A stretch of 64,000 bases of DNA from Spirochaetota bacterium (GTDB lineage: Bacteria; Spirochaetota; UBA12135; COTS27; CBDBHE01). This document shows, in pieces, positions 1-50,326 of the stretch. The translations under genes were made by a program, and so were the position numbers. Position 1 is the stretch's first letter, and each line of letters opens with the position of its first letter. The notes under the pieces are model-generated. The model was given only the letters and a program-made list of their open reading frames with translations. It was not told where the DNA came from and made no database searches. The stretch covers positions 320,001-384,000 of the forward strand of contig CBDBHE010000007.1 in assembly GCA_965205605.1 (NCBI GenBank), read 5' to 3'.

Positions 1-1138
1 GTAAAAATCGACTGCGATTAACTCCCCTTAACCCCTTCTGCGACAACAAGTAATCTTCACTCACGTATAAATTGTCCTTCGTTAAAAAATGAAACGATTG
101 TATCTCTTCCCTTCCTCCCTTCCCTCTCTCTTCTTCCTCTTCCTCTCCATTATTTCCTTTTCCTTTCCCATTCCCATTTCCATTCCCATTCCCATTCCCA
201 GTCCCATTCCCAGTCCCTTTAGAAAATGATTTAACAAATGACCCGCCTCCCGTTTTAGCACCAGAAAAAAAAGTCTTCTTTTCAATGAAGTACTCCCTTA
301 CCCAATGCTCCCTGCCTTTCGGATTGCAATCACACACCAGTTTCGAAACTCGCTCTTGCATCAAGTCACGTCCCCCATGAAGCCGAGTAAGCAACTTCTC
401 AAAATCTAAAAAATCAATGTCCGTAATCTCTCCAATAAAAATATCCGCCCATTCGCTTCCTAGCACCGCATCACGGTGGCGAGAGTTTTCAATCCCTCCC
501 ATCTCAATCACCGAACCATTCCTAAACACAATCTGCCTTTTCGCTTTCTCTTCTCTCCACTCTCCCCCTTCACCCCCCAACATCCGTTTTAAAACCCCAA
601 GCAACGTCTGCTCATATACCGTCTTCATCACACTCGTCACCGTCTTCCTCACCACTAGCCTCCTCGTCTGCGGCATCAAACAACTCCTAGCTACAAAAAA
701 AACACACAATAAAAAAGTCTTGCCAGCTCGACTAGCCCCATACAATAAAAAACTCTTCCCTTCTCCCCAAAGTCGTCCCCACACTTCCTTTTGACGCTCG
801 CTTAAATCTACCATCCGATATTTTAAAATCTCTCTCCCATTACCTCTCTCAAAACCTCTCCCATTACCTCTCTCAAAACTTCGTCCCTCTCCCAAACTTC
901 CTTCCTCCCCTCTTTCTCTTTCTCTTTCTCTTTCTCTTTCTCTTTCTCTTTCTTCCTTCCTTCTTTTGCCTTCAAATCGCTCCATCATCTCGACAAGCTT
1001 AATCAGCCCACGAGGGTCCTCTTTACTCTTCTCCATAAACCCTCTCACCATTTGCTCTACCCCTCTTAGTCCCTCTCCCTTTTCCCCAAACAAGTATTCG
1101 CTAATAAACCCTTCTATCTTTTCTAAAATCCTTCTCAT
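1..1138 (-). CDS. Phage terminase large subunit (PBSX-like), N-terminal ATPase half; runs off the left window edge
   Basis: Manual translation from ATG at 1138 (SD GGGGAGG upstream) is open to base 2. It shows a Q-motif LSERQ, Walker A LYGASRAGKT, RRLVVRKT, FRNGSVIEMGG, Walker B-like GSEWADIFIGE, coupling motif DCNPKGREHW and TKDNLYVSEDY...RSRFL. Not in the ORF track because there is no stop in the window. Confidence 0.85.
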   Translation of the reverse strand, partial: MRRILEKIEGFISEYLFGEKGEGLRGVEQMVRGFMEKSKEDPRGLIKLVEMMERFEGKRRKEERERERERERERERGEEGSLGEGRSFERGNGRGFERGNGREILKYRMVDLSERQKEVWGRLWGEGKSFLLYGASRAGKTFLLCVFFVARSCLMPQTRRLVVRKTVTSVMKTVYEQTLLGVLKRMLGGEGGEWREEKAKRQIVFRNGSVIEMGGIENSRHRDAVLGSEWADIFIGEITDIDFLDFEKLLTRLHGGRDLMQERVSKLVCDCNPKGREHWVREYFIEKKTFFSGAKTGGGSFVKSFSKGTGNGTGNGNGNGNGNGKGKGNNGEEEEEERGKGGREEIQSFHFLTKDNLYVSEDYLLSQKGLRGVNRSRFL

Positions 1139-1232
1139 TTCTATTTTTTTCCTCCCCTTGATACTTTTCTTTTAAACAGAGACTTATCTTCTCCTTTTTT
1201 TGTTTCGTTTCTTCTTCTTCTATCCTTCTCTT

Positions 1233-1349
1233 TATAAAATTAACCTATAAAATTAACCTATAAAATTAACCTATAAAATTAACCTATAAAATTAACCTAT
1301 AAAATTAACCTATAAAATTAACCTATAAAATTAACCTATAAAGTCAACC
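1233..1349. repeat. 13-bp tandem repeat (TATAAAATTAACC) x9
   Basis: Eight perfect copies plus one variant (TATAAAGTCAACC), upstream of the terminase gene. Confidence 0.95.
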
Positions 1350-1358
1350 TCATCTCTT

Positions 1359-1450
1359 ACAAACAAACTTCATCAAAAACAAACAAACTTCATCAAAAAA
1401 AAAAAAAACTTCATCAAAAAAAAAAAAAACTTCATCAAAAAAAAAAAAAA
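1359..1450. repeat. ~20-bp tandem repeat (AAACTTCATCAAAA core) x4, decaying into poly-A
   Basis: Read directly from the sequence. Confidence 0.85.
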
Positions 1451-1764
1451 AGTGTCGAAAATATAAAAATAAACATAAAAAAATAAAAAATATAAAAACA
1501 AAGAATGTTTATCTTTATCATAGAACGTCAAGCACATAAAAAGTTCGTTGCTAAACCTCAAACAAAGAAAATTAAAAACTTGCTTAAAAAAAAAATAAAA
1601 ATTAATCTTTGGTTTAAAAAAAAATAAAAATTTTTTTATCTCTTCTTACGCGCCTTATCATAAACACAGACTTTCTTCGCTTGGTTATTTCTTCTTTAAC
1701 TAAGAACTTAATAAAAAAAAACAAAATTAATTTCTGTTTATCGTTAAATGTCAAGCACATTTTT

Positions 1765-2049
1765 TTATGATATTCTTAACACCTTTTCTTTTCGGTGCCT
1801 CTCTTTTTCCACAAACTCTGGAAATAGCCTATCTACCTTCTCTCTAAGCTCTATCATCTGACAACGAGGACACTTCGCCCCAGCCACAAAGCCTCCCTTA
1901 AAACAAGCCCTCTTATCACAATGACACTTTAACCTCTCTAACATCTCTTCATCTCTCATCGAAATCGCTCGATTGTACACTTCCCTCTCTTCACTCGTGT
2001 ATCCCCATTCTTTCAGCCTCTTTTCCTTTAGCCTTCTCATCAAACTCAT
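1765..2049 (-). CDS. Hypothetical phage protein, Cys-rich (CxC...C...CxxC, possible Zn-binding)
   Basis: 94-aa ORF, purine-rich SD-like leader (GGGGAGAGAAGGG), motifs CHC and CPRC; co-oriented with the terminase. Confidence 0.6.
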   Translation of the reverse strand: MSLMRRLKEKRLKEWGYTSEEREVYNRAISMRDEEMLERLKCHCDKRACFKGGFVAGAKCPRCQMIELREKVDRLFPEFVEKERHRKEKVLRIS

Positions 2050-2596: not shown

Positions 2597-2708
2597 ACTC
2601 CATTTTACAAAAAAAAAAAAGTAAATTATTTTCTTAATTAAAAAAATAAAATTAATCTCTGTTTATCTTAAAAAGTTAAGCATCTCAAAAAAAAAAAAAA
2701 AAAAAAAG

Positions 2709-2792: not shown

Positions 2793-3662
2793 ATGAAACC
2801 TCTCGTTAACGAGTTTTCTTTAATTTTTAGCCCAAGCCTTTCAAAACACTTGGGACTCAAACAAGCCATTTTCTTGCAACAACTTCATTACTGGATTGTT
2901 AAAAAAATCGAAAAAGACCCCGAAAATCCAAAGTCTTTTTGGGTTTACAACACCGCAAAACAGTGGTGCGAGCAACTGCCTTTTTTGTCTGAAAAATCTT
3001 TCTGGCGACTTATCTCGTCTTTGAAAAAAAAAAACCTTCTGCTTGTCTCAAACCAAAACCGACTTAAGTTTGATAAAACTAATTGGTATTCTCTCCATTA
3101 CCAAAACTTGCATTCTCTTTTTAAATGGCCTCTATCATCGGCCCCTTCATCACAACCAACTGCTTCATCACAATCCCCCAAAAGTCGTTTAAGCTCTAAC
3201 CCTCCTCCTCCATTGTTTCCCACTCCTTTAGTCCAAATTGACCCTTCCCACCTGCCCCCTTTGACCCCCCCTATACCAGAGACTAACCCTAAGACTACTC
3301 ATCCATCTATTTCTTTATCCATTCCTTCCCCATCACCTACTGATTTTTCTTTACCCCCTCAAGAGCCGTCATTAAAAAAACCCTTAGAAGAGAAAAATGT
3401 TTTTTTAAGTAAATCTCAAGTGGTCTTTTTGTTAAAAAAATATTCCAAGACCTTGCTTAGGAAGTTTATTAAAAAATTAAGCTTGTACAAGTGGTCTTCG
3501 GGAAAAAAGTACGCATGTGATTTCGCTGCAATTTTAAACTGGGTGGCCGTGGCCGTCTTGAAAGAAGAAAAAACAGCTTCGCGAAAACCTAGCTCAAGGG
3601 CTTATAAACTCCACCCCAATCAAAGGGCTCTTAAACGCTATTTGGAAATGGAAAAAAATTAA
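2793..3662 (+). CDS. Phage replication initiator / replisome organizer
   Basis: N-terminal wHTH motif LGLKQAIFLQQLHYW...WVYNT..QW..QLPF.SE; Pro/Ser linker; C-terminal GKKY.CDFAAILNW, typical of phage initiators. Confidence 0.8.
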   Translation: MKPLVNEFSLIFSPSLSKHLGLKQAIFLQQLHYWIVKKIEKDPENPKSFWVYNTAKQWCEQLPFLSEKSFWRLISSLKKKNLLLVSNQNRLKFDKTNWYSLHYQNLHSLFKWPLSSAPSSQPTASSQSPKSRLSSNPPPPLFPTPLVQIDPSHLPPLTPPIPETNPKTTHPSISLSIPSPSPTDFSLPPQEPSLKKPLEEKNVFLSKSQVVFLLKKYSKTLLRKFIKKLSLYKWSSGKKYACDFAAILNWVAVAVLKEEKTASRKPSSRAYKLHPNQRALKRYLEMEKN

Positions 3663-3876
3663 ATACTTCATTTAAAAACTACCTTTAAAAAACTCTATTT
3701 AAGAAAAAATAACCAAGGAAAAAGTATTTATATTGATGATTAAACGTTAAGAACATTTTTTTTATGTGCTTAAGTGTTCTACGATTTACACACCCTCTCT
3801 TTGCTTGGCATTTCTTCTTTAACCCCGCATATAAAAAAAAATGTTAAGCACAGGAAAGAATAAAAAAGGAGTCAAA

Positions 3877-4179
3877 ATGGACGTAGAGAAAAAGAAAGTG
3901 TTAAAAATGGTGATGAGTCTTTTTGAGTCAAAGCTCAAGCGATATAATGAAAACACTTTGGAAGTTTGGGTTGAGATGTTAAGGGGTTATGAAGAGAAAA
4001 AACTCAATGACGTATTTTTACAAGTCATTCGTAGTGGGGATGAGTTTCCTTCGGTTGGGAAAATGATTGAAATCATGGAGCACGGGGAGCTTTTAAATGA
4101 AAGCGAGCGTCAAGAAATCTACTACCGGCAAAAACGAAAAGAAGCTTTATTACTTTTAGAGGAGGCAAAGGAGGAATAA
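3877..4179 (+). CDS. Putative helicase loader/inhibitor (SPP1 G39P-like)
   Basis: SD AAGGAG before ATG 3877; pattern VW.EML.GY....L..VF...I.....FPSV; lies directly after the initiator. Confidence 0.55.
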   Translation: MDVEKKKVLKMVMSLFESKLKRYNENTLEVWVEMLRGYEEKKLNDVFLQVIRSGDEFPSVGKMIEIMEHGELLNESERQEIYYRQKRKEALLLLEEAKEE

Positions 4180-4218
4180 AAAAACAAGAAGAAATAAAAA
4201 AAAACGAGGAGGTAATCC

Positions 4219-4659
4219 GTGAAACATGGTGATAAAAAAGCAAGTGAGTTAAAAGGTTTTAGTGGTCTAAAGGGAGAAGTAAGTGTGTACTTGGAAGGGC
4301 TAAAAAAAAGACTGGGAAGGGAGGAGAAGGACAAAAGTTGTCCGCGATGTCAAGGCAAAATGGTGATGCTAGGAGGGAAGGTGTTTTGTGGGGAGTTTTG
4401 TTTTGAAGAAGAAAAGGAAGCGAAGAAAAAGAAGGACAAAAGAAGGATGAAGCTAACGATGTTTGATGAAAAGATGCAGCAACTTTTTTTGTCTAAAGGG
4501 AGGAAGGTGCCTTCGATTGAGATGGTGAAGATTTGGTGGGAGGTGGTTTGCGAAGAGCAAGAAGAAAGTTTAAGGGGTGGATTTAAAACGTATATGATGA
4601 GTCTTAGGAGTGATTTGCAAGTTTCTGTTTTATTGGATTTTGCTAGGAATAGCCGCTAA
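4219..4659 (+). CDS. Phage hypothetical protein: Zn-ribbon (CPRC...CGEFC) plus a second G39P-like helical domain
   Basis: SD GAGGAGG before GTG; CxxC/CxxxC pairs; C-terminal IWWEVV...LRGGF pattern resembles the upstream ORF. Confidence 0.55.
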   Translation: MKHGDKKASELKGFSGLKGEVSVYLEGLKKRLGREEKDKSCPRCQGKMVMLGGKVFCGEFCFEEEKEAKKKKDKRRMKLTMFDEKMQQLFLSKGRKVPSIEMVKIWWEVVCEEQEESLRGGFKTYMMSLRSDLQVSVLLDFARNSR

Positions 4660-5032
4660 GAAAAGGCTTTATTTTAGAAGGAATAATAAAGCGAAGAGTA
4701 TTTATATTTATGAAAAAAAATATCAAGCGAAGACAATTTTTGTTTGTCGTTAAATGTCAAGCTTTAACATAAAGTTTAAGAAAAAATAATAAAGCGAAGA
4801 GTATTTATATTTATCCGAAGAGTATTTATATTTATGATCAGGTGTGAAGCCGATCAAAAAAAAAAAAAAAAAAAAAAAGTGAAAAGTGTTAAGAACATAA
4901 AAAAAAAAAATCGTTAAATTTGAAGAACACAGGAAAATAAATAAGATACCGAAGACGTAGAAAAAACAATGGCTTTCATTTAAGAAAGAATAATGAACTC
5001 TATTTAAGAAGATAAAAAAAAGAAAAGAGGTA

Positions 5033-5356
5033 GTGAAAAGTATGGAAAAAATCAAAAATGAAAATAAAGAAACAGGAAGTTTTTTTGGAGAGAAGAAATT
5101 GGAAGTATTACTCAATCGAGTGAGGATGAAGATAAAATACGGCACTGACTTGACGATTGGAGAAGTGGCGGCTTACTTATCGCTGAGTGTGAGCAAAGTG
5201 AGGAACTTACTGGGGCTAGGGAAGGTTTTTTATGAAGGGAGGTGGCTTTTTTCGACTAAGAAATTAAACTTCATTCGGTTAGGACGTTCTATTCGGATAC
5301 CGACGAAATCATTTTTACTGTTTTTAAAAGAGACGGAGAACGAAAAGGATGTTTAA
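5033..5356 (+). CDS. Excisionase-like (HTH_17/MerR-type) DNA-binding protein
   Basis: LTIGEVAAYLSLSVSKVRNLL...IRLGRSIRIP motif; SD GAGG. Confidence 0.8.
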   Translation: MKSMEKIKNENKETGSFFGEKKLEVLLNRVRMKIKYGTDLTIGEVAAYLSLSVSKVRNLLGLGKVFYEGRWLFSTKKLNFIRLGRSIRIPTKSFLLFLKETENEKDV

Positions 5357-5619
5357 AAACTTGCTTAAAGAAGAAATGTGAAGGAAGATTTGACATAAAA
5401 AAAAGAAGCGAAGAGTATTGATATTTATGATTAAACGTGAAGGACAGGAAAAAAGATAACATAAAAGATATCAAGGAGATAATAAAGAAACTTGATAGAA
5501 TGGGAAAGGAATGCTAAGATGATGTTTTTGGTGATTAGAGGGGCTAAAGAAATAAAAAGGCCGTGAGAAAAAAGGGCTTTAAAGGGTTTTAAAGGGTTTT
5601 TAAAAGGAGGTGGTATGGG

Positions 5620-6009
5620 ATGAAACGAACTGAGCTGGAAAGGAAAAAGAGAGACTTAAAAAAAAGAGAGAAGAAAGAGAAGTTGCTGGCAGAAAAGATT
5701 GAGCTTAGGGAATTAGTCCGTGGTGAAGTCCACAGCGAAGATTTTTTTAAGGAAGGGGGTGGAGGAGAAAAAGGTGGTATGAGGAAAGGAGCGGGAGTTT
5801 ATATCAAGACATTAAGTGGATTATTTCGGTATGACGAGGAAGAGATTTACAATTTAAGTGACGAGAGGATTTTAAACGTGCTCATTGAGATAAAGGAGGT
5901 GGTACCGAGAACGAAATGGGACAATGTTTTGAGGAAAGCGATTAGGAGCACGAAGGTAAGGAAAAAAGAGAATGCTTTTATTGAGTTAAAATCTCTTTTG
6001 GAAGATTAA
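5620..6009 (+). CDS. Conserved hypothetical protein, probably host-derived
   Basis: Strong SD AAGGAGGT; upstream TTGATA-17-TAAGAT. The C-terminal YDEEEIYNLSD...W..VLRKAIR.T.V domain resembles, from memory, spirochaete hypotheticals. Confidence 0.65.
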   Translation: MKRTELERKKRDLKKREKKEKLLAEKIELRELVRGEVHSEDFFKEGGGGEKGGMRKGAGVYIKTLSGLFRYDEEEIYNLSDERILNVLIEIKEVVPRTKWDNVLRKAIRSTKVRKKENAFIELKSLLED

Positions 6010-6092
6010 AGGCTTGGTTTAAGGCTTGGTTTAAGGCTTGATTTAAGGCTTGATTTAAGGCTTGATTTAAGGCTTGATTTAAGGCTTGATTT
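6009..6092. repeat. 12-bp tandem repeat (AAGGCTTGRTTT) x7
   Basis: Copies start at 6009, 6021, 6033, 6045, 6057, 6069 and 6081. Confidence 0.95.
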
Positions 6093-6263
6093 AAAAACTC
6101 TATTTAAGAAAAAATAACGAAGCGAAAAAAAGTCTTTGTTTTACAAAAAATAATAAAGCAAATTATTTTCTTAATTAAAAAAACAGAATTAATTTTTGTT
6201 TGTCGTTAAATGTCAAGCATATGAAAAAAGAATCATAAGATTTTAATCAAAGGGAAGAAGGCT

Positions 6264-8858
6264 ATGAAAAAAAAGACTTTATTAATTTTATTGGTAATGT
6301 TGATGTTTTGGCTAGAGGTTTGGAGTGCTGATAGAGAGCGAGAAAGGAGCGGAGTGATATTAAAACGAGGGGATAATTTTTTTAAGGAAGTTTATTTAGA
6401 AGGTACACTTGAGGTTTTTTTAGAGAACAGGGTTGACTTTGGGACGGTTCAAAATGAGACGGTGGGGGGGCTTAGTGAGAGTGAGCGGTATGTATTTTCG
6501 CTAAGGGGAGGAGGGTATGTTTGGAATCAATTTTTTTATCAAGGCTTTAATATCACTGATAGCTTGATTAGTGGCAGTAGTTTGTATAAGCTTTTTCTTT
6601 TTGACAAGAGGTTGGAGATTAATGGGTCGAAGGGGCACTTTTCAATCGAGGACGATTTTTTGGGGGGAAGCGAATGGAGGATAGAAGGGCAGGTTTCTCC
6701 TTTTGGGGAGCGATTTTTTTTAGCGGATGCTTGGACGAGAGAGCTTGGAGGGTATTCTTCGGTGTATGAGAGGGAGGGCAATTTACTAAAGGACGAGGGG
6801 AAGAGGAGGGGACGAGTACCGTTTAGTTTTTCAGGGATGGTGAGGAAGGTGTTGAAGAGAGGTGGTGAGGAAAGGAATGAGGCAGGAGGAGGGAATGGGA
6901 GAGGGAGAGGAAATAATTCAGTAAGTGTGTTTGAAATGAGTTATCTTGAGATGAGGCGAGAGTTAAGAGAGATTGATTTTAGAGGGGAGGAGGGACGATA
7001 TGAGAGTGGGTTTAGGCGATTGGGGGGACGGTTTGAAAAGAAGTGGACTAGTGGAGTGGGGGAAGGGGCTAGTGAGTGGCACTTAGGGCAATTATTTTTG
7101 GTGAGTGAGAATGATAATTTTGATTCTTATTTAGGGCTGGATAAGAGGGAAGGGAGAAGGTTAGGAGGTGGGACGTGGAGTAGTTTTTTAAAGGGGAAGA
7201 AAGGAGGGTGGGAAGGCACTGGGGGAGTGAATGTGTCTTATAAGAGATTTGAAGGGCAAGTGGGAGGAGAAGGAGGAGTAAGTTATAATGTTTTTGATTT
7301 AGGGGGAGAGAGGGTGGGGTCTTTTTTATCTCCTTTGTATGAAGGGGTGAGTGTGTCGGTTCCTTTGAAGGTAGAGCTTGATTTAGAGGGGAAGGGATGG
7401 ATGAGGGGGACGAAAATAGTTTTAGATTCGAAGGATGATTTTATTTTCACATTTCCGGTTGTGAGGCGACGAACGCATGGGGTGTATTTTGAAACGGAAG
7501 AGGAACGTTTTTCACTTTACGCTAGGAGGGAGGTGTTGAGGGAAAGTGAGAGTTGGTTAAGTCATCGGTCTTTAGGGATAAAGGGATTTATGGATTGGTT
7601 TAAGGATAGGTTTTTTATGAGTGCGTGGGAGGTAGCGATGGAGGGGAGTGGGTTTATAATTAGAGGGGAGGAGAGATTATTTTTTATGAACGCGAGTTTT
7701 GAATTAAAAAACAGCTTTAATTTCAGCGATATTTTTGAAATTGAAATTGATATTGGGAAAAAGAACATTGGTTTAGAGAGCAAAACGATGTTATTTTTTT
7801 CCGACTCTTTTTCATCGAGTGAGAGTTATTACTGGGCGGATAAGAACGACAATCAAAGAGTAGAAGAAGGAGAAGTAAGTGAGAAGGTGTTTGATACGAG
7901 CGGAGGGAGATGGCATCGACTGAGGGAAGATTTAAGACAACCGTATTTGTTGTATTTGGAACTTCCTTTGAGGGTGAGGGCGAGTGAAGCGATTGGTTTT
8001 GAGTGGGGATTTTCTTACCGTTCGTTTAGGGACTTGTACTGGGTGAGTTACAAGGAAGATGAGAGGGAGGTAGGGTTTTTTGAAACCGATGAAGAAGGAA
8101 GGGAGTGGTATTTTTTAAAGGAAGGGGAGAAGGTCTATGAAGTGGGTAATTTTAATTTAAATGAAGGGTTGCTAAAAGAAAGGGTGAGTGAAGAAGAGTG
8201 GCCCAGGGGTCATTTTTTTTTAGAGCATCCTTTTTATTTATCGATGAGGCTTGGGCTTGATTATGAAAAGGAAGACATTAGGGCTGGGATTAGTTTCACG
8301 GCATTTTTAGTGATGATGATAAACAGCAGGGGAAATGGGGTAGGTTATCAAAGCTTGGGCTTACTTTCAGAACAAACGGCAAACCCAAACGGGTATCGAT
8401 TTTCAGCGGGCAGAGGAGATGCTGATAGGGGGTATTTTATGAAAGCGTATTATTACCATAAAATCAATTCGCATTTTTCTAGCAGCTGGACTCTCAAGTA
8501 TCGAGACGGACAACCTTTTGGGGTATCTGAGAGTCGAGTCAAAGAAACGGCTCTTGTGGGGGGAGGAAAAGGGAGGCAAGTGAGTTTTCAAAGAAGTAAT
8601 GTGCATGGAGACAATATTTTCAATGGTAAGTTTGGCAGGAGAGAAGACTCTCACTGGGATTTAAGTGGGCGCTTTAGAGTTTATTTTTTTAAAAGCAAAA
8701 AAAAGAATCTCAGTTTTTTTTTTTCTGTGGAAAACCTCCTTGACTTGGGGTCTGCTATCCTAGAAGACACGTTAAGGGAGGAGGGCAAAAAAAATCGACT
8801 TGCTCTCAAAGTAGAGCCGCCTAGGTCTGTTAGTGTGGGGTTAGAAGGGACTTTTTAA
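6264..8858 (+). CDS. Outer-membrane beta-barrel protein, TonB-dependent receptor-like
   Basis: Signal peptide; alternating beta-strand pattern; VENLLD and PPRSVSVGLEGTF C-terminus ending in Phe. Confidence 0.7.
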   Translation: MKKKTLLILLVMLMFWLEVWSADRERERSGVILKRGDNFFKEVYLEGTLEVFLENRVDFGTVQNETVGGLSESERYVFSLRGGGYVWNQFFYQGFNITDSLISGSSLYKLFLFDKRLEINGSKGHFSIEDDFLGGSEWRIEGQVSPFGERFFLADAWTRELGGYSSVYEREGNLLKDEGKRRGRVPFSFSGMVRKVLKRGGEERNEAGGGNGRGRGNNSVSVFEMSYLEMRRELREIDFRGEEGRYESGFRRLGGRFEKKWTSGVGEGASEWHLGQLFLVSENDNFDSYLGLDKREGRRLGGGTWSSFLKGKKGGWEGTGGVNVSYKRFEGQVGGEGGVSYNVFDLGGERVGSFLSPLYEGVSVSVPLKVELDLEGKGWMRGTKIVLDSKDDFIFTFPVVRRRTHGVYFETEEERFSLYARREVLRESESWLSHRSLGIKGFMDWFKDRFFMSAWEVAMEGSGFIIRGEERLFFMNASFELKNSFNFSDIFEIEIDIGKKNIGLESKTMLFFSDSFSSSESYYWADKNDNQRVEEGEVSEKVFDTSGGRWHRLREDLRQPYLLYLELPLRVRASEAIGFEWGFSYRSFRDLYWVSYKEDEREVGFFETDEEGREWYFLKEGEKVYEVGNFNLNEGLLKERVSEEEWPRGHFFLEHPFYLSMRLGLDYEKEDIRAGISFTAFLVMMINSRGNGVGYQSLGLLSEQTANPNGYRFSAGRGDADRGYFMKAYYYHKINSHFSSSWTLKYRDGQPFGVSESRVKETALVGGGKGRQVSFQRSNVHGDNIFNGKFGRREDSHWDLSGRFRVYFFKSKKKNLSFFFSVENLLDLGSAILEDTLREEGKKNRLALKVEPPRSVSVGLEGTF

Positions 8859-10051
8859 AACCCCAAGAGAAACTTTAAATCTTGGGTGTATTTTGTAAGA
8901 AGCTTTAGAGAAAGGTATTCATTTTTTTGGTGAGCTTGGCTAGGAAGGCCGAGTCCATAGTTAAGGGAGGGGATGGAGAAGTCGGTGAGTTGGGCGACGT
9001 CTGTCCAGGCTTGTTTAGGGTGAAGGGTGAGAGAGAGGTTGGTGATGGCTTTTTTGATGAAGGAGTCAAAAAAAGGCGAAGAGAGAGGGGTGGCTCCTTT
9101 AGTGTTGGAGACAATTTCAAGTTTCATGTTAGGGGGAGTTTTAATTTTTTTTAGGAAGGCTGTGAGAGAAAAAAAGGCTTGACGGGGAGTGAAAAAAGGA
9201 GCGTAGCGATAATTGACTCTCGCGGTAAACTTGTGGGGCAAGGTGGTGAAACTTTTGCCGATGCGATTAGAGTGAGCATGAGTGATTTGAAAGACTTCAA
9301 AAAAATCAAGGCCACCGACTTTAATTTTTTTAGGTTTTAGCGTTGAAAAAGCCTTTAAAAACGAAACCGCTTGATAAATCGCATTGCTTCCTTGCCAAGG
9401 CCTAGCCGAATGAGCTGACTTACCAAAAAACGTCATCTCAGCATGCAAGCTACCCAAAGCCCCTAAGTGAATCATCCCTTCGGTTGGCTCTCCCACGATG
9501 GCAAGGTTTACGCTTTTAAAAAAAGCTCGATGATTTCTCAGCATCGAATACAGCCCGTTGTCTTCTAATTTGGTGCCTTCTTCACGACTATAAAGCACCA
9601 CAGAAAGGCGGTAAGAAAGATGACGATACCTATTTTTTTGACACAAAAGCTCTAGCAAATGAAGGTACACCCCCACACTGCCTTTCATATCACTGGCCCC
9701 CCTGCCATGTAAAAAATCTCCTTTTACATACGACTTAAACCATTCTCCTACCACGTCCACATGCCCCACTAAAATCACATGCGGTTTCTTTTTCTTATCT
9801 TCCCTCTCACTTTCTTTAAACTCAACAATAAGACCATCGATTTCATTGCCCGTTAAAATCAGTTTTTCAAACACCTTTGCCTTCGACTTAAGTCGATTTT
9901 TTATAAACGTATAAAAAGGCTTTTCTTTATAAGTAGGGCTTTCAATATCCAACACTTGCTTGATGAGCTCCCCTAAAGCTTTTTCTTCTTTTCTCTCTAA
10001 AAGCGGTAATGGTTTTCCATTTTTTGTTTTTAAAGCTTGATAAACGGACAC
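8855..10051 (-). CDS. dapE: Succinyl-diaminopimelate desuccinylase (M20 family)
   Basis: GHVDVV, HGRGASDMKG, REE, HSARPWQGSNAI, AWTDVAQ and AHQKNE motifs; dapB is nearby. Confidence 0.8.
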   Translation of the reverse strand: MSVYQALKTKNGKPLPLLERKEEKALGELIKQVLDIESPTYKEKPFYTFIKNRLKSKAKVFEKLILTGNEIDGLIVEFKESEREDKKKKPHVILVGHVDVVGEWFKSYVKGDFLHGRGASDMKGSVGVYLHLLELLCQKNRYRHLSYRLSVVLYSREEGTKLEDNGLYSMLRNHRAFFKSVNLAIVGEPTEGMIHLGALGSLHAEMTFFGKSAHSARPWQGSNAIYQAVSFLKAFSTLKPKKIKVGGLDFFEVFQITHAHSNRIGKSFTTLPHKFTARVNYRYAPFFTPRQAFFSLTAFLKKIKTPPNMKLEIVSNTKGATPLSSPFFDSFIKKAITNLSLTLHPKQAWTDVAQLTDFSIPSLNYGLGLPSQAHQKNEYLSLKLLTKYTQDLKFLLGF

Positions 10052-10057
10052 GGTTTC

Positions 10058-12499
10058 TTAATCTTTACCTAAACGGTCTTTTTTGGTTTCTTTCCCCTCA
10101 GAACTTCTTCTCTCGGAACTCCTTCCTTCAGAGTTTCTTCCTCGATCGGAACTTCTTTTTCCTTCTGAGCTCCACGTTTTAAAGCCTCGTCCCTCGGAAC
10201 TTCCTGTTTTAAATCTTCTTCCTTCAGAACTTCGTCCCTCAGAACTTCTTCTCTCGGAACTCCTTCCTTCAGAGTTTCTTCCTCGATCGGAACTTCTTTT
10301 TCCTTCTGAGCTCCACGTTTTAAAGCCTCGTCCCTCGGAACTTCCTGTTTTAAATCTTCTTCCTTCAGAACTTCGTCCCTCAGAACTTCTTCTCTCGGAA
10401 CTCCTTCCTTCAGAGTTTCTTCCTCGATCGGAACTTCTTTTTCCTTCTGAGCTCCACGTTTTAAAGCCTCGTCCCTCGGAACTTCCTGTTTTAAATCTTC
10501 TTCCTTCAGAACTTCGTCCCTCAGAACTTCTTCTCTCGGAACTCCTTCCTTCAGAGTTTCTTCCTCGATCGGAACTTCTTTTTCCTTCTGAGCTCCACGT
10601 TTTAAAGCCTCGTCCCTCGGAACTTCCTGTTTTAAATCTTCTTCCTTCAGAACTTCGTCCCTCAGAACTTCTTCTCTCGGAACTCCTTCCTTCAGAGTTT
10701 CTTCCTCGATCGGAACTTCTTTTTCCTTCTGAGCTCCACGTTTTAAAGCCTCGTCCCTCGGAACTTCCTGTTTTAAATCTTCTTCCTTCAGAACTTCGTC
10801 CCTCAGAACTTCTTCTCTCGGAACTCCTTCCTTCAGAGTTTCTTCCTCGATCGGAACTTCTTTTTCCTTCTGAGCTCCACGTTTTAAAGCCTCGTCCCTC
10901 GGAACTTCCTGTTTTAAATCTTCTTCCTTCAGAACTTCGTCCCTCAGAACTTCTTCTCTCGGAACTCCTTCCTTCAGAGTTTCTTCCTCGATCGGAACTT
11001 CTTTTTCCTTCTGAGCTCCACGTTTTAAAGCCTCGTCCCTCGGAACTTCCTGTTTTAAATCTTCTTCCTTCAGAACTTCGTCCCTCAGAACTTCTTCTCT
11101 CGGAACTCCTTCCTTCAGAGTTTCTTCCTCGATCGGAACTTCTTTTTCCTTCTGAGCTCCACGTTTTAAAGCCTCGTCCCTCGGAACTTCCTGTTTTAAA
11201 TCTTCTTCCTTCAGAACTTCGTCCCTCAGAACTTCTTCTCTCGGAACTCCTTCCTTCAGAGTTTCTTCCTCGATCGGAACTTCTTTTTCCTTCTGAGCTC
11301 CACGTTTTAAAGCCTCGTCCCTCGGAACTTCCTGTTTTAAATCTTCTTCCTTCAGAACTTCGTCCCTCAGAACTTCTTCTCTCGGAACTCCTTCCTTCAG
11401 AGTTTCTTCCTCGATCGGAACTTCTTTTTCCTTCTGAGCTCCACGTTTTAAAGCCTCGTCCCTCGGAACTTCCTGTTTTAAATCTTCTTCCTTCAGAACT
11501 TCGTCCCTCAGAACTTCTTCTCTCGGAACTCCTTCCTTCAGAGTTTCTTCCTCGATCGGAACTTCTTTTTCCTTCTGAGCTCCACGTTTTAAAGCCTCGT
11601 CCCTCGGAACTTCCTGTTTTAAATCTTCTTCCTTCAGAACTTCGTCCCTCAGAACTTCTTCTCTCGGAACTCCTTCCTTCAGAGTTTCTTCCTCGATCGG
11701 AACTTCTTTTTCCTTCTGAGCTCCACGTTTTAAAGCCTCGTCCCTCGGAACTTCCTGTTTTAAATCTTCTTCCTTCAGAACTTCGTCCCTCAGAACTTCT
11801 TCTCTCGGAACTCCTTCCTTCAGAGTTTCTTCCTCGATCGGAACTTCTTTTTCCTTCTGAGCTCCACGTTTTAAAGCCTCGTCCTTCAAACTCTTTTCCG
11901 CCTAAATCTTTTTCTTCTAAATCTTGTCCTTCTAAATCATCCCGATTTAAATCTTCGTCCCTCAGAACTTCTTCCTTCGGAACTTCTTCCTTCAAAGCTC
12001 CACGTTTTAAATCTTCGTCCCTCAGAACTTCTTCCTTCGGAACTTCTTCCTTCAAAGCTCCACGTTTTAAATCTTCGTCCCTCAGAACTTCTTCCTTCGG
12101 AACTTCTTCCTTCAAAGCTCCACGTTTTAAATCTTCTTCCTTCAGAACTTCTTCCTTCGGAACTTCTTCCTTCAAAGCTCCACGTTTTAAAACCTCGTCC
12201 CTCAGAACTTCTTCCTTCAGAGTTTCTTCCTCGATCGGAACTTCTTCCTTCAAAGCTCCACGTTTTAAATCTTCGTCTCTCAGAACTTCTTCCTTCAGAG
12301 TTTCTTCCTCGATCGGAACTTCTTTTTCCTTCTGAGCTCCACGTTTTAAACCTTCTTTCTTTACTTTCTCTAAGCTTTCTTTAGGTGAGTTTCTGGGGGT
12401 AGATGAATCATCTTTTGAAAAAAAAGAAGAATCCTTTTCACTAGATTCATTTGAAGATTCTCTTGAAAGTTCGTTTGAATCTGCTTTATTAAAGGTCAC
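10058..12499 (-). CDS. Intrinsically disordered repeat protein: acidic repeat block followed by an Arg/Ser/Gly repeat block
   Basis: 813-aa ORF with unique N- and C-termini, ending 6 bp before the dapE start; weak GTG start with no clear SD. Confidence 0.65.
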   Translation of the reverse strand: MTFNKADSNELSRESSNESSEKDSSFFSKDDSSTPRNSPKESLEKVKKEGLKRGAQKEKEVPIEEETLKEEVLRDEDLKRGALKEEVPIEEETLKEEVLRDEVLKRGALKEEVPKEEVLKEEDLKRGALKEEVPKEEVLRDEDLKRGALKEEVPKEEVLRDEDLKRGALKEEVPKEEVLRDEDLNRDDLEGQDLEEKDLGGKEFEGRGFKTWSSEGKRSSDRGRNSEGRSSERRSSEGRSSEGRRFKTGSSEGRGFKTWSSEGKRSSDRGRNSEGRSSERRSSEGRSSEGRRFKTGSSEGRGFKTWSSEGKRSSDRGRNSEGRSSERRSSEGRSSEGRRFKTGSSEGRGFKTWSSEGKRSSDRGRNSEGRSSERRSSEGRSSEGRRFKTGSSEGRGFKTWSSEGKRSSDRGRNSEGRSSERRSSEGRSSEGRRFKTGSSEGRGFKTWSSEGKRSSDRGRNSEGRSSERRSSEGRSSEGRRFKTGSSEGRGFKTWSSEGKRSSDRGRNSEGRSSERRSSEGRSSEGRRFKTGSSEGRGFKTWSSEGKRSSDRGRNSEGRSSERRSSEGRSSEGRRFKTGSSEGRGFKTWSSEGKRSSDRGRNSEGRSSERRSSEGRSSEGRRFKTGSSEGRGFKTWSSEGKRSSDRGRNSEGRSSERRSSEGRSSEGRRFKTGSSEGRGFKTWSSEGKRSSDRGRNSEGRSSERRSSEGRSSEGRRFKTGSSEGRGFKTWSSEGKRSSDRGRNSEGRSSERRSSEGRSSEGRRFKTGSSEGRGFKTWSSEGKRSSDRGRNSEGRSSERRSSEGKETKKDRLGKD
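10095..11885. repeat. 141-bp tandem repeat, ~12.7 apparently identical copies
   Basis: Marker GAGCTCCACG recurs at 10167, 10308 ... 11859 (period 141); encodes a 47-aa unit. Confidence 0.97.
11946..12350. repeat. 60-bp tandem repeat (~4 copies) plus longer variants, built from the same 15-bp subunit as the 141-bp array
   Basis: Sequence lines 11941-12180 repeat with period 60; subunit approximately CTTCTTCCTTCAGAA. Confidence 0.9.
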
Positions 12500-30145: not shown

Positions 30146-31948
<1,803 letters not shown>

Positions 31949-47585: not shown

Positions 47586-47640
47586 TTTTTATTAATTTTT
47601 TTTTCTTCTCAAAAAGAAGTTTTATTTTTAATTTTTGTTT

Positions 47641-48639
47641 TCATTTTTTAAAATGATCAAACCCTCCAAGCTTTTTTTCGTCTAAAACATTAAAGCGTCC
47701 ATCAGGAAAAACGAGAATGACTTCTTTAGTATCATGGAGGATTTCACCGATTTCATAACCAAAAGACTTGTCAGCATACTTGCTAGAGGTGGTGTATAAA
47801 AGCTCATAATCTTCTCCTCCGTAAAGAGCCATATGAGTGGGGGTGGGATTTTGTTTAAGTTTTTTAGCCGCTTTGACAAGCAGGGGACTAATGGGAAGTT
47901 TGTTTAGAAAAATTTTGGCTCCTTTATTGCTTTGTTTACAAAGATGGGCCAAGTCTCCTAAGAGTCCATCAGAAATATCAATGAGAGCATTGGCATAAGG
48001 CAAAACTTGGTTTAAAATATCAAACCTTGCTTTAGGTTTTTTTTGAGCGGCTTTAAGGGAAGCAAAACCTTTAATATTTTCAGTCAAGAGCAGTAAACCA
48101 CATTTAGCATTTCCAAGTGAACCGGTGACTTTAATACGGTCATGGGCTTTTGCTTGAGAACGAAGAAAGGTTCTTGAGGTCAATTTTTTACCAATAAGAG
48201 TGATAGAAATATGGATTTTATCAGAAAGGGTTGTATCCCCTCCTAAAATATCAAAAGCATATTGCTTACAACTGACTCTAATTCCTTGATACAAGCTTTT
48301 GACCCACTGTACAGAGGTGTGTTTGCTTATCGCCAAAGAGACCAAAGCGTATAAAGGCCATGCTCCCATAGCGGCTAAATCAGAAAGATTGGTTTGGATG
48401 GCTTTGATGCCAACTTCTTTAGGGGTAAAGGTTTTTACAGAAAAATGTCTATCTTCAACGAGCATGTCTGTGACTAAAACGTAGGGTCCTTCTTTAAAAT
48501 TGACAATGGCCCCATCATCGCCAATCCCTTTAATGACTTGGGGATTGGTTGATTTTTGAGTAATGAGATCAATGAGTTTAAACTCACCCCCCAGTTGTTC
48601 AATCGTTTTAAGCTTTTGTTTTTTTTTTTTCATTAGCAC
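47641..48639 (-). CDS. thiL: Thiamine-monophosphate kinase
   Basis: GIGDDGA, NLSDLAAMGA, GGDT, DISDGL and GGEDYEL motifs. Confidence 0.95.
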   Translation of the reverse strand: MLMKKKKQKLKTIEQLGGEFKLIDLITQKSTNPQVIKGIGDDGAIVNFKEGPYVLVTDMLVEDRHFSVKTFTPKEVGIKAIQTNLSDLAAMGAWPLYALVSLAISKHTSVQWVKSLYQGIRVSCKQYAFDILGGDTTLSDKIHISITLIGKKLTSRTFLRSQAKAHDRIKVTGSLGNAKCGLLLLTENIKGFASLKAAQKKPKARFDILNQVLPYANALIDISDGLLGDLAHLCKQSNKGAKIFLNKLPISPLLVKAAKKLKQNPTPTHMALYGGEDYELLYTTSSKYADKSFGYEIGEILHDTKEVILVFPDGRFNVLDEKKLGGFDHFKK

Positions 48640-48715
48640 GTTTATTTTTATAAAAAATTTTTTTTTTCTACTTTATTTAAAATCACTAACGGAGTATGGT
48701 ATATTTTTTTAAAAG

Positions 48716-49762
48716 ATGCGTTTAAATTATTTTTCAAAGTTGAAACTATTTTATCAAAAAAATAAATATGTTTTTAAGATTTTACTAATTTTTTTATTTT
48801 TTCTTCTTCTATGGATAAAAATTGATTTTTCAAAAATTACAGCGATTAAAATGGAATGGTTGGTGTATGGGCTCATTATGGTGCTTATCAGTCATGGGTT
48901 TGGCAACTTGTCGTGGTATTTTATTTTAAATGCTCTTAGAAAAAAGGCACCGATGAGAAAAAAGGCACCGATGATTTCTTTTAAAAAAATGATTATCCCC
49001 TATTGGTTGGGACTTTTTTTTAATAATTTTATGCCAACGAGTATTGGAGGGGATGTGATCAAAGGATTTTCGATACATCGAGTGTTAAAAAACCCATTAA
49101 AGATTACGCTTTCGATTGGGATAGATCGTTTGTTTGGGGTGGTGATTTTAATGGGGATTGGGATTCATAGTTGGCTATTATTTTTTTACAAGGGAAAGGT
49201 TTTGTTGTTATTTTGTATCGCCGAAGGGATGATAATTGGGTTATTATTTTTATTTTCAAAACATTTTTTTTGGATTTTAAAAAAAGGGTTTAAGTCGTTT
49301 GATTGGTTTGAAGATAAACGTCAATTGATCTTAAAAATCACTTCATCTTTAAAAGAGATATATAAGCAAAAGAAATTGTTTTTACTCATGACCTGTGGGA
49401 TGGTGTTGTCTCAATTGTTCAAGATTTTAATGAATGGATGTATTGTTTTAGGACTTGAGAAGAGAGGCAGTAGCCTCTTACCAGCAGAATATGTTTTTTT
49501 TCTTGTCCCTATTTATGGGATTTTGGCATTGATTAGTTTAACGCCCGGGGGACTAGGAGTTAAGGAATATTTATGTGTGTTATTATTTAAAAACGTTCCC
49601 TTTTTAATCCAAGGAGAAGACAGGGGAAGCTTTTCTGAAAGTTATATTGTCGAAATTACATTATTAAGTTTACTCAGTCATTTATTAGTGATGATTTCGA
49701 GTTTAGGAGGGGGGATTTTTTTTTTATTTGAAAAAAAAACCTTAAAAAGCACTTTTAGCTAA
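48716..49762 (+). CDS. Lysylphosphatidylglycerol synthase TM-domain (UPF0104) flippase-like protein
   Basis: GLFFNNFMPTSIGGD, DRLFG and TPGGLGVKE motifs; 18-bp internal duplication (RKKAPM x2). Confidence 0.85.
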   Translation: MRLNYFSKLKLFYQKNKYVFKILLIFLFFLLLWIKIDFSKITAIKMEWLVYGLIMVLISHGFGNLSWYFILNALRKKAPMRKKAPMISFKKMIIPYWLGLFFNNFMPTSIGGDVIKGFSIHRVLKNPLKITLSIGIDRLFGVVILMGIGIHSWLLFFYKGKVLLLFCIAEGMIIGLLFLFSKHFFWILKKGFKSFDWFEDKRQLILKITSSLKEIYKQKKLFLLMTCGMVLSQLFKILMNGCIVLGLEKRGSSLLPAEYVFFLVPIYGILALISLTPGGLGVKEYLCVLLFKNVPFLIQGEDRGSFSESYIVEITLLSLLSHLLVMISSLGGGIFFLFEKKTLKSTFS

Positions 49763-50326
49763 AGCATCAACATAATCATTCCACTTATTATGAGAATGAG
49801 CTTTAACTTTTTCAAAATGATAGTTAATAGGACGAGAGTGAAGAAATAAGACATAGTCTTTTGCGATTTGGCTTTTGGCTTTCCAAGTCCCATCAGCCCA
49901 CCTAGCGATGCCTTCATAATCGTGGACTAAAGTGACATGGTGGTGATGTTTTTGAGCCCAGAGGATAGCTTGCTTTACGGCTTCAAGTTCGCCGTCGATA
50001 TTACGACTAAGGGCATTGTGGAGAGTTAATCCTTTATCAAAAGCAAGAATGCCTTCAAGTGTGGTTGCTACCCATGCCCAAGCTGATTTTTTACAAAGGC
50101 CATTAAATGACCCATCGACATAGATTCGAATAGAAGTTTTTGTTTTATTTTTTGTAAAAAAAGGCTTTGAAAGAATGTTTAAATAATTTTGAGCTTCTTT
50201 TTTATTAGTAAAGGCTCGATATTTAACATTTGAAACTCCTTTGATGATGGATTGACACTCTGACCAGCTGTCTAAAAGATGTGTTTTTTCAGCAGAAATA
50301 AAAATAGCGTAATACTTTTTAGGCAT
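49742..50326 (-). CDS. rnhA: Ribonuclease HI with N-terminal viroplasmin-like hybrid-binding domain
   Basis: KYYA...WSEC...KG..YRAF; YVDGS, GELEA, HDYEGI and KVKAHS...NDYVD.LAK motifs. Confidence 0.88.
   Translation of the reverse strand: MPKKYYAIFISAEKTHLLDSWSECQSIIKGVSNVKYRAFTNKKEAQNYLNILSKPFFTKNKTKTSIRIYVDGSFNGLCKKSAWAWVATTLEGILAFDKGLTLHNALSRNIDGELEAVKQAILWAQKHHHHVTLVHDYEGIARWADGTWKAKSQIAKDYVLFLHSRPINYHFEKVKAHSHNKWNDYVDALAKSAF

Follow-up and report, generated by a model that had tools for sequence, protein, structure and literature searches.

Kilobase-scale strand skew and raised silent-site G+C around a phage-derived element in a Spirochaetota chromosome

Introduction

What kind of process can reverse the balance of G and C between the two strands of a bacterial chromosome every few kilobases, within genes as well as between them? 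The question is raised by a stretch of 64,000 nucleotides from a Spirochaetota bacterium (G000:C7:320001-384000), referred to here as the window, in which an oscillating G/C skew surrounds a phage-derived element lying across the window's left end. An initial annotation of the window had described the oscillation and ascribed it to a bidirectional mutational process starting at fixed intergenic sites. The observation proves stronger than that annotation stated, in that it holds at synonymous sites and is specific to one zone of the chromosome; the interpretation is partly supported, the pattern having been read correctly. The replication baseline was missed at that stage, as were the phage-derived element itself and a tandem-repeat gene, which stand behind the largest swing.

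The window belongs to an assembly of 1,686,894 bases in 8 contigs with G+C of 0.27-0.32, and the comparison set consists of nine genomes of the order, that is, eight besides the source genome, which is the sole member of its family there. Positions are window coordinates unless a contig is named, those upstream of the window being given as negative window coordinates (e.g. -15201), and genome-wide skew was computed on a simple gene set based on open reading frames (ORFs). Four features, namely silent-site G+C, skew variance, a sawtooth of skew along genes and tandem repeats, peak at the element and fade with distance from it, and a terminase-bearing region of a relative (G003), serving as control, has none of the four.

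Size and authenticity of the oscillation

Skew of the forward strand reaches -0.72 and +0.67 in one-kilobase windows and -0.82 and +0.71 in 500-bp windows. Genome-wide, 26 of 3360 one-kilobase windows exceed 0.5 in absolute value, and about 20 of these lie in C7:288-329k. All twelve intervals to which the initial annotation had assigned a sign carry that sign, with skews of -0.50 at 1-3400 (G 314, C 930), +0.53 at 3800-9300 (G 1637, C 503) and -0.33 at 9300-14800, and of +0.12 to +0.31 in the small G-rich islands. The cumulative skew has its minimum plateau at 3400-3826 and its maximum at 9293, in agreement with the switch positions of 3.4/3.8 and 9.3 kb read by eye. The first of these is the main switch of the window:

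3400..3826, no strand: main C-to-G switch, the cumulative-skew minimum plateau, covering the 3' third of a replication initiator gene and the next spacer

When the standard deviation (SD) of 500-bp skew is taken per 20-kb block, the window's first 20 kb (0.40) rank at the top of 81 blocks, with a median of 0.14 and a binomial expectation of 0.074, and the next two most variable blocks (0.24 and 0.23) are the 40 kb directly upstream of the window. The anomaly begins about 32 kb left of the window, so that the oscillation seen in the window is the right half of a larger zone. The earlier statement that amplitude fades rightwards is borne out by SDs of 0.40, 0.165 (20-40 kb) and 0.149 (40-60 kb), but the last two values are ordinary for this genome, and the oscillation beyond about 20 kb is not exceptional.

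Such ordinary values would suit a reading in which nothing special has happened, gene strand, amino-acid content and replication bias being sufficient or the assembly being at fault, and so would the part of the window that is accounted for by a repeat gene:

10058..12499, minus strand: tandem-repeat protein gene, 813 aa, with a 141-nt unit repeated 12.7 times and a 60-nt unit repeated 4.6 times

The encoded protein is rich in Arg, Ser, Glu and Gly and has no Pfam match. The plus strand at 10-12.4 kb is C-rich and T-rich because this gene occupies it, and three long ORFs overlap at 10058-12499 only because the composition removes stop codons. Against so plain an account, the three most variable of the 81 blocks adjoin one another at this locus. 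An assembly join at the switches was considered and ruled out, since contigs independently assembled from two runs of one sample bridge both main flips, spanning 1505-4846 and 6065-10050 with 0 differences; the contig comparison covered window positions 1-10050, and assembly word depth is about 4-7. Nor does the maximum at 9.3 kb coincide with a terminator-like site in a scan that found 11 such sites in 18.5 kb, as against 22 expected from shuffled sequence.

Silent-site G+C and tandem repeats

Along contig C7, G+C at fourfold-degenerate sites (GC4) is mostly 0.22-0.28, rises from 230k to 0.52 at 310-320k and is back to 0.29-0.31 by 390k; the element has a GC4 of 0.52 and its neighbours 0.37-0.42. 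Third-position G+C (GC3) behaves alike. Of the 86 genes with GC3 above 0.32, 61 are located in C7:250-400k, and in host genes GC3 declines the farther a gene is from the element, a trend that extends beyond 100 kb in both directions (Spearman -0.68 to the left, n=87; -0.66 to the right, n=91). Mean host-gene GC3 amounts to 0.35 for genes no more than 25 kb from the element centre and to 0.305 for those at 25-50 kb; farther out it is 0.25-0.27, compared with 0.207 in the rest of the genome. The genes so affected are ordinary core genes, including a purN-type formyltransferase gene, dus, tsaD, htpG, rplM, dapB, thiC and others. Much of the window falls within this gradient:

1..50000, no strand: right flank of the compositional zone, as defined by host-gene GC3 by distance

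Tandem-repeat arrays follow the same geography, with 51 of the genome's 200 in C7:270-360k. The three richest of 52 bins of 30 kb are C7:300-330k (29 arrays), 330-360k (12) and 270-300k (10), for a median of 3, so that the element centre carries about ten times the median.

The phage-derived element

Gene content marks positions 1 to 9.3 kb of the window, together with about 15 kb upstream, as a phage-derived element of about 24 kb with no recognisable integrase. The features within the window are the following:

1..1138, minus strand: large terminase, 5' two-thirds (whole gene C7:319375-321138, 587 aa; Pfam PF04466, E 3e-9; phrog_2)
1233..1450, no strand: iteron-like tandem arrays, a 13-nt unit repeated 8.5 times and a 21-nt unit repeated 4.1 times, non-coding, between the terminase and the rightward genes
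1741..1757, plus strand: element-specific motif, a 17-nt core in a block of about 37 nt, one of 10 good copies
2793..3662, plus strand: DnaD-like or O-like phage replication initiator (phrog_6493, E 4e-29; also phrog_678 'O-like' and phrog_13246 'replisome organizer')
3841..6009, plus strand: right-arm small genes of 112, 146, 107 and 129 aa, with coding skew of +0.42 to +0.62
5033-5356, plus strand: HTH_17 excisionase-type protein gene, among the right-arm small genes
6004..6094, no strand: 12-nt tandem array repeated 7.6 times, from the repeat scan

Upstream of the window, on the terminase strand, lies a gene for a major head protein (phrog_247, E 7e-55), and the terminase and major head genes thereby stand in one cluster, as is to be expected of an element derived from a tailed phage. 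A GH108 endolysin with a PG_binding_3 domain is encoded at -14955..-13954, and a match to a tape-measure protein is weak (E 4e-7). No family match was found for the 485-aa protein adjoining the terminase or for five other element proteins. The 21-nt unit of the iteron-like arrays carries a CTTCATCA box and A runs, and the CTTCATCA box recurs twice within the initiator gene, at 3145 and 3163.

Other copies of the element-specific motif are found at window positions 1518, 2666, 4747, 4911 and 6203 and at -15201 and -15064, all on the plus strand, and at -3313 and -2373 on the minus strand. Copies with the shared flanking block are confined to the region from -15.2k to 6.2k and are oriented as the nearby genes, and this block, some 37 nt long, may serve the element as a promoter or operator. 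The spacer at the main C-to-G switch contains an inverted pair of motif cores at about 3735-3775. In the G-rich arms of the element, C's of the motif core are changed to G, A or T. A perfect T15/A15 inverted repeat with a 23-nt gap is also present, at 2068-2120, where the leftward and rightward element genes diverge.

The two arms are compositional mirror images of each other on opposite strands. When each is read on its G-rich strand, one has A.34, C.09, G.30 and T.27 and the other A.33, C.10, G.30 and T.27, compared with C.14, G.17 and T.36-.37 on ordinary leading strands. The terminase gene has a coding-strand skew of +0.59 (+0.77 at third positions), and fourfold sites of the left arm have G.46 and C.07. 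The plus-strand genes at 2261-3662, left of the main switch, are not G-rich; the initiator's coding strand is C-rich (-0.30, and -0.53 at second positions), chiefly in a Pro/Ser/Thr linker encoded at 3100-3400. In the non-coding DNA at 1001-1500, G makes up 4 % of the bases.

No tyrosine or serine recombinase was found near the element, matches being confined to contig C6 for PF00589 and to C7:183k for PF00239, and the genome has no RVT_1 match indicative of a reverse transcriptase. There is no tRNA gene between -40k and 64k and no convincing attachment-site repeat, the only direct repeat being a 16-nt A-rich sequence at -15387 and 12674 (E 0.018, in a small search). An integrated temperate prophage is recognised by an integrase together with attachment repeats on its two sides, in many cases beside a tRNA gene, and this combination was not found here.

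No close relatives of the head protein were found in the genome_contigs and metagenome_contigs collections or in any of the eight other genomes of the order, and known phages give less than 30 % identity; no close terminase relatives were found in viral_contigs. A single related element, known by its proteins alone, is carried by a 64.5-kb contig, with a head protein 86 % and a terminase 65 % identical to those described here. Substitutions between the two elements are lopsided (K to R 12 versus 1, I to V 6 versus 0, L to V 4 versus 0), and the window element has extra inserts rich in Gly, Glu and Arg, a combination that points to lineage-specific drift of the window element towards G-coded residues. 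The absence of an integrase, together with reading frames that have stayed intact under extreme mutation pressure, would fit the gene transfer agent family.

Replication-strand background

A first component of the skew belongs to the chromosome as a whole. Whole-contig skews are about +/-0.11-0.14, and the cumulative skew of C7 drops to a minimum near 460k and rises thereafter. The dnaA gene lies at C7:463764-465089 on the minus strand, around the sole Bac_DnaA match in the genome (C7:464295-464768), and the window is situated 76-140 kb left of oriC and dnaA (C7:460-465k), on the replichore with a C-rich plus strand. Outside the zone, third-position skew of the coding strand averages +0.30 (SD 0.21) in 675 leading-strand genes and -0.24 (SD 0.21) in 576 lagging-strand genes; replication direction therefore dominates silent-site skew, and gene direction contributes only about +0.03 to it genome-wide. 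Next to oriC, fourfold-site skew is -0.66 and +0.70 in two adjoining 10-kb bins, whichever strand the genes are on, and about 0.3 within 15 kb. Silent-site skew thus tracks the replichore rather than the gene strand and changes sign at oriC, as a single-origin bias predicts. Because the window is left of oriC, its plus strand is C-rich at silent sites for either gene direction, and a strong replication-strand bias underlies the C-rich background of the window. The clearest instance is a gene whose direction opposes that baseline:

12829..14772, plus strand: htpG (Hsp90), coding strand C-rich throughout, third position -0.41 to -0.63

The C-rich coding strand of htpG is the replichore baseline. 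The claim that neither single-origin replication nor transcription explains the skew therefore has to be divided: replication supplies the C-rich background and bias of the htpG type, but it fails to cover all of the switches, leaving over the G-rich domains and eight within-gene switches located 90-150 kb from oriC. Transcription is taken up below.

Three observations on the replication background may be added. The origin switch itself falls inside a plus-strand gene (C7:458906-460543), where third-position skew goes from -0.55 to +0.57 at codon 460. The dnaA gene, 3 kb right of that switch and on the minus strand, is in lagging orientation, with a third-position skew of -0.68. At window positions 40000-64000, fourfold-site skew is 0.00, -0.04 and +0.08 in three 10-kb bins, compared with a replichore baseline of about -0.25, and these near-zero values could stem from an old rearrangement or else belong to the zone's outer part.

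A sawtooth of silent-site skew

Superimposed on this background, and limited to the zone, is a sawtooth on the scale of single genes. Between the first and last thirds of a gene, third-position skew falls by +0.26 in 48 zone genes (38 positive, p 1e-6), as compared with +0.005 in 834 genes elsewhere, and zone genes of both orientations share the 5'-to-3' fall. The four strongest of 44 overlapping 90-kb zones all surround the element. Significant switches within genes number 19 among the 739 genes tested, where about 1.8 are expected by chance, and eight of the 19 are crowded into 57 kb (C7:310-367k). All eight run from G to C, the G-richer part being 5'. In the window they include, besides dapE, the following:

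14801..16294, minus strand: CCA-adding enzyme, switch at codon 264, third position +0.35 to -0.26, z 3.9
20843..21754, plus strand: UbiA prenyltransferase, switch at codon 135, +0.54 to -0.27
30146..31933, minus strand: thiC, switch at codon 470, +0.39 to -0.38, z 4.0
41684-43675, plus strand: P-type ATPase, switch at codon 330, -0.08 to -0.64
45265-47100, plus strand: OmpA/BamB-like gene, switch at codon 459, -0.02 to -0.68

The mid-gene G-to-C flips that had been noticed by eye in dapE, cca and thiC are therefore real at synonymous sites (z 11.0, 3.9 and 4.0). Restricting the comparison to fourfold sites of host genes leaves a fall of +0.26 (20 of 27 positive, p 0.004), so that gene strand and amino-acid content do not account for the pattern. 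The same persistence at fourfold sites, the excess of within-gene switches and their crowding make it hardly credible that nothing special is involved, even though the repeat gene at 10-12.4 kb, the replication-derived background and the amplitude beyond 20 kb are all ordinary.

The return stroke of the sawtooth is at gene boundaries. Across boundaries in the zone, taken for this purpose as C7:280-370k, plus-strand skew jumps upward by a mean of +0.17 (42 of 53 positive, p 4e-5), compared with -0.026 for 983 pairs elsewhere. Tandem, divergent and convergent pairs in the zone all jump upward, convergent ones by +0.27 (7 of 8). The jump is 0.00 in the 13 pairs with spacers of at most 20 nt and +0.21 to +0.23 at longer spacers. 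Outside the zone, divergent boundaries jump by +0.076 and convergent ones by -0.115, which is the ordinary transcription rule; since the rest of the genome obeys this rule at its boundaries, the zone must be under a different one, and the downward jump at convergent boundaries that marks transcription-coupled skew is not what the zone displays. The assignment of C-to-G flips to intergenic A/T tracts accordingly stands as far as jumps occur at real spacers, but the main switch spans the 3' third of the initiator gene as well. No motif shared by host spacers with large jumps, such as the initial annotation had proposed to look for at its switch points, was seen among 19 spacers, which were compared by eye only, with no formal motif search. 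The pattern is mutational rather than selective, being present at fourfold sites and in non-coding DNA, and its signature of G-run dislocation is weak (GG dinucleotide ratio 1.04-1.13; runs of at least three G 0.117 of runs, compared with 0.09 expected).

A change from C to G between units and from G to C inside them reads the same on either strand, and for this reason the pattern seems to ignore gene direction. By the same symmetry, sequence alone cannot separate tracts that start in spacers from a coding-strand skew that falls along each transcription unit. Thus the proposal of a bidirectional process starting at fixed intergenic sites draws support from the boundary jumps (42 of 53) and the uniform G-to-C direction within genes (8 of 8), and these data fit a fall per transcription unit equally well. 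Convergent spacers, with their upward jump, speak for tracts beginning in spacers and extending outward on both strands, and the missing reset at operon-tight junctions fits both readings.

A transcription-linked asymmetry would make each transcription unit of the zone G-rich on its coding strand near the start and C-rich near the end, for example through R-loops or damage to the non-template strand near promoters combined with antisense or read-through transcripts from A/T-rich spacers, the element's arms then being two long divergent units. The reset of the sawtooth at real spacers and its absence at tight ones, the 5'-to-3' fall in genes of both orientations and the G-rich coding strands of both element arms are all as this explanation would have it, and the G-rich domain of the right arm enters the convergent dapE gene from the plus-strand genes with neither a spacer nor a terminator-like site between them. 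Yet genes outside the zone have no such trend, so that the explanation would still call for a cause confined to the zone; at convergent spacers, which are not expected to hold promoters, the jump is in the wrong direction for it; htpG is C-rich over its full length, while the plus strand is G-rich where the convergent CCA gene has its 3' end; and the plus-strand genes at 2261-3662 are not G-rich. As gene direction adds so little to skew genome-wide and the excess of tandem repeats is not predicted, transcription is considered an unlikely source of the pattern.

Two further observations concern within-gene switches and spacers. The second strongest synonymous switch within a gene (z 6.8) is located on another contig, at C6:25878-27656 on the plus strand, and is of the C-to-G kind, from -0.54 to +0.60 at codon 137. 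In the window, two spacers 5.6 kb apart share a near-identical stretch of some 75 nt that finishes with a T run, at about 23385-23470 and 29050-29130.

The G-rich domain beyond the phage genes

The G-rich domain that begins at the main switch extends past the recognisable phage genes into two long reading frames, which converge with a 4-nt overlap:

6264..8858, plus strand: secreted outer-membrane-type protein, 864 aa, of an order-conserved family
8855..10051, minus strand: M20 peptidase of the DapE type (Pfam PF01546, PF07687)

The 864-aa protein has no Pfam or PHROG match, but homologous open frames of 832-949 aa exist in seven of the eight other genomes of the order. Its gene has a skew of +0.56, compared with -0.01 to +0.23 for five homologues, and third-position skew drops from +0.83 to +0.36 at codon 475 (switch z 6.6). 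Codon positions 1 and 2 are shifted towards G by +0.28 per codon relative to the five homologues (p 1e-14), and the protein accordingly contains 12.3 % Gly, 10.8 % Glu and 8.7 % Arg, where the homologues have 6.9-7.8, 3.8-6.2 and 3.0-6.5 %. This gene may be host DNA or cargo of the element.

The end of the domain is inside dapE. At codon 237-246 or thereabouts (nt ~9293-9340), third-position skew changes from +0.46 to -0.73, and with a z of 11.0 this is the strongest switch among the genes tested; the step is about 150-200 nt wide. Over the last 148 codons the plus strand is G-rich and the gene's own coding strand C-rich, and positions 1 and 2 are shifted towards C by -0.45 per codon relative to 125 homologues (p 3e-8), compared with +0.04 in the first 250 codons. 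The suggestion that the skew reshapes proteins is thus confirmed in opposite directions by two adjoining genes. With the 3' third of dapE G-rich on its non-coding strand and the plus-strand genes on the initiator side not G-rich, it is position and not gene direction that sets the sign of the skew there.

An inversion ending in dapE was ruled out, as the gene is intact and the protein collinear over its full length with six relatives and 119 further homologues; like the contig data for both main flips, this agrees with the earlier expectation that switches would not lie at inversion or assembly breakpoints. A dapE 3' end supplied by a phage was likewise considered, and no second copy was found by tblastn with the C-terminal parts from G000 and six relatives at E values up to 10. 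No repeat of at least 12 nt links 9.25-9.35 kb to the left border of the element. For polarising substitutions in dapE, the best relative is 44 % identical, which is not close. The C-terminal third is unusually diverged, with a ratio of C- to N-terminal identity of 0.84 (rank 2 of 126) and best matches that differ from those of the N-terminal part.

So sharp a step in an intact and collinear gene, whose last third is diverged and has its own best matches, is what would be left at the end of an imported tract. Repeated recombination from G+C-richer relatives, with segments oriented oppositely to replication, could have built a mosaic that thins away from a selected locus, either the element or the surface-protein gene; the five homologous surface-protein genes of relatives have G+C of 0.35-0.46, and a related element does exist elsewhere. 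Zone G+C is raised smoothly, and not as two classes of segment, and homologous recombination would presumably work poorly between alleles so different that third-position skew is reversed from -0.5 to +0.8. No donor-like sequence was found, dapE's best relative being as distant as stated, and import predicts neither the uniform G-to-C direction within genes, the C-to-G resets at spacers nor the tandem repeats. Import is therefore regarded as distinctly unlikely.

The same step can be viewed as the joint between element and host. In this case a phage-plasmid would have integrated recently, its arms recording a past existence as a circle replicating bidirectionally, with a replacement dapE 3' end and the surface-protein gene as cargo and the rest of the oscillation as scatter. 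Some temperate phages do carry a replacement 3' end for their target gene, as phage 21 and e14 do in icd. With the initiator gene as their midpoint the arms are mirror images, their amplitude resembles the one beside oriC, a copy of the element-specific motif stands directly upstream of the surface-protein gene, and composition is continuous across the gene boundary at 8855 before it ends abruptly. Against integration of this kind are the missing integrase, the lack of an attachment repeat of at least 12 nt at 9.25-9.35 kb and of a displaced dapE 3' end in the genome, and the left 6 kb of the element, which is not G-rich on the plus strand as it should be in a circle with that origin. Such an integration would also fail to explain why GC3 declines in core genes across more than 100 kb, why host genes have a sawtooth and why repeats are in excess outside the element, and a recently integrated phage-plasmid is therefore quite improbable.

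A local mutation process centred on the element

The explanation that we tentatively prefer, although it falls somewhat short of probable, combines three overlays: the replication bias of the chromosome, the phage-derived element, and a local mutation process centred on that element, whose likeliest source would be DNA synthesis tied to the element. That a position-dependent pattern surrounds the element is observed, and its mechanism is what we infer. The process would add G to one strand, and hence C to the other, at the expense of A, T and C, raising silent-site G+C; it would yield tandem duplications and fade over more than 100 kb on each side; and its polarity would be reset from C to G at real intergenic spacers and reversed from G to C inside genes or operons. 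The gain of G, the raised G+C, the action on non-coding DNA, the duplications and the centring on a phage replication module are the reasons for taking it to be linked to DNA synthesis. As a source, repeated in-situ ('run-off') replication from the element's origin can be envisaged, together with restart, repair and recombination tracts and possibly with re-import of the synthesised DNA via the element's own particles, the newly made strand being the one that gains G.

Several considerations weigh against this explanation. In-situ replication is a supposition and the element's origin a putative one; the clearest iteron arrays, at 1.23-1.45 kb, are offset from the skew switch by about 2 kb to the left. 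Neither the sharp G-rich end at about 9293 in dapE nor a gene-scale sawtooth is predicted by a process based on replication forks, and flank skew is not a simple bipolar function of distance. Run-off copies are inherited only via recombination back into the chromosome or via transfer, which is assumed here. Since the arms are co-oriented with their genes, transcription is inseparable from position for most of the element. The data come from one low-depth assembly (word depth ~4-7), with no close relative by which to polarise substitutions.

A bolder form of the element-tied explanation, which we consider doubtful, is that a domesticated phage origin and particle module act as a long-lived local mutator of the chromosomal neighbourhood, rewriting more than 200 kb of it. 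Repeated firing of the origin, with repair, recombination or particle-mediated re-import, would double silent-site G+C and drive skew to 0.6-0.8, seeding tandem repeats and reshaping core proteins such as DapE along the way, and the sawtooth would mark where synthesis tracts begin, in spacers, and where they meet, inside genes.

Comparison with known systems

Berglund et al. in 2009 reportedly described a gene transfer agent of Bartonella with run-off replication. This run-off replication (ROR) system is the closest described counterpart of the locus. According to the sections of Guy et al. (2013, PMC3610622) that deal with it, a phage-derived run-off replication origin amplifies several hundred kilobases around itself and feeds the gene transfer agent, and the origin is thought to lie within the initiator gene. 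The words 'skew' and 'GC3' do not occur in that paper's main text. Like the Bartonella system as those sections present it, the present element has a chromosomal phage-derived replication module with an initiator of the lambda O-like type (PMC3610622), is near a cluster of phage-particle genes, and is the peak of an effect on several hundred kilobases of flanking DNA. A candidate origin is indicated here by the initiator family match, the iteron-like arrays, the box copies within the gene and the skew switch in its 3' third. Differences from ROR, again with respect to those sections, are that DNA amplification was measured there whereas a compositional footprint is what is available here; that the genes are unrelated and the phylum is different, particle genes and initiator being contiguous in the present case; and that the Bartonella particle cluster is conserved whereas the head protein of this element is matched in none of the eight other genomes of the order. 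Unlike a gene transfer agent without means of self-transfer, the element has a replication module.

A compositional bias of another kind is associated with the RcGTA-like clusters of Alphaproteobacteria, which, in the portions of two studies that treat the point, are G+C-richer than their genomes and prefer G- over C-containing codons (Kogay et al. 2020, PMC7360931; Koppenhofer et al. 2022, PMC9836097), and are located in peaks of GC skew (PMC9836097). In those clusters and their neighbours GC3 equals that of the genome (P 0.62, 212 genomes), the rise being at codon positions 1 and 2 and ascribed in the relevant section to selection on amino acids (PMC7360931). The present zone does not conform to this type: GC3 and GC4 double, neighbours are affected for more than 100 kb, and GC3 is correlated with distance (rho about -0.67). 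Skew in RcGTA-like clusters, for which the passages concerned mention deviations of more than 0.03, is also small beside the 0.6-0.8 found here.

In spirochaetes such as Borrelia, replication-strand bias is said to reshape codon and amino-acid usage, as work by McInerney in 1998 and by Lafay et al. in 1999 reportedly established. The genome studied here resembles that type in having a leading strand that is G-rich at silent sites for either gene direction, in the effect on proteins and in the sign switch at oriC next to dnaA. A Borrelia-type bias switches once at the origin and once more at the terminus, and what sets the present genome apart from it are kilobase-scale switches, a tent of GC3 and a repeat hotspot. 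Local anomalies in cumulative skew diagrams reportedly arise from prophages, islands and inversions (Grigoriev is said to have noted this in 1998), and PhiSpy is said to use GC skew as a feature of prophages. As with prophage anomalies, the largest excursion of the present skew coincides with a phage-derived element; unlike anomalies due to inversion or insertion, it includes a switch inside a collinear and intact dapE and a graded effect on core genes. A literature search, which was partial and does not prove absence, found no paper tying a prophage or run-off origin to a gradient of silent-site G+C or a gene-scale skew sawtooth.

Implications

Should the element prove to be the source of the footprint, it would follow that a phage origin resident in a chromosome can dictate how core genes mutate locally over hundreds of kilobases. 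The regime would be strong enough for two parts of a single gene to shift the amino-acid composition of an essential enzyme in opposite directions. Run-off replication, gene-transfer-agent activity or particle-mediated exchange, for which marker-frequency or transduction experiments are needed at present, would then be recognisable from sequence alone. The gene-scale sawtooth is a rare natural record of where strand-asymmetric tracts of DNA synthesis or transcription start and end in a bacterium, and it bears on whether, in A+T-rich genomes, G+C is raised by locally acting processes such as biased repair or biased incorporation. Whatever its cause, the locus provides a clean natural experiment, with two substitution regimes acting on alike genes of one replichore in one genome.

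Additional observations

A promoter-like segment of about 60 nt (TTGACT, 17 nt, TATACAAT) flanks a small minus-strand gene on both sides, at L001:15900-15960 and L001:16712-16790 (C7:295.9k and 296.7k), and a C-to-G skew switch coincides with the second copy.

A relative in the order contains an open frame of at least 11,133 codons (L025 and L026:1-13403; G005:C1:~1706000-1739400, plus strand) that is rich in Ser, Thr, Asn and Pro and continues past the 5' limit of the stretch analysed. Its coding skew reaches -0.68 at second and -0.88 at third codon positions, with an almost uniform 500-bp skew (SD 0.05), and extreme silent-site skew therefore occurs elsewhere in the order too.

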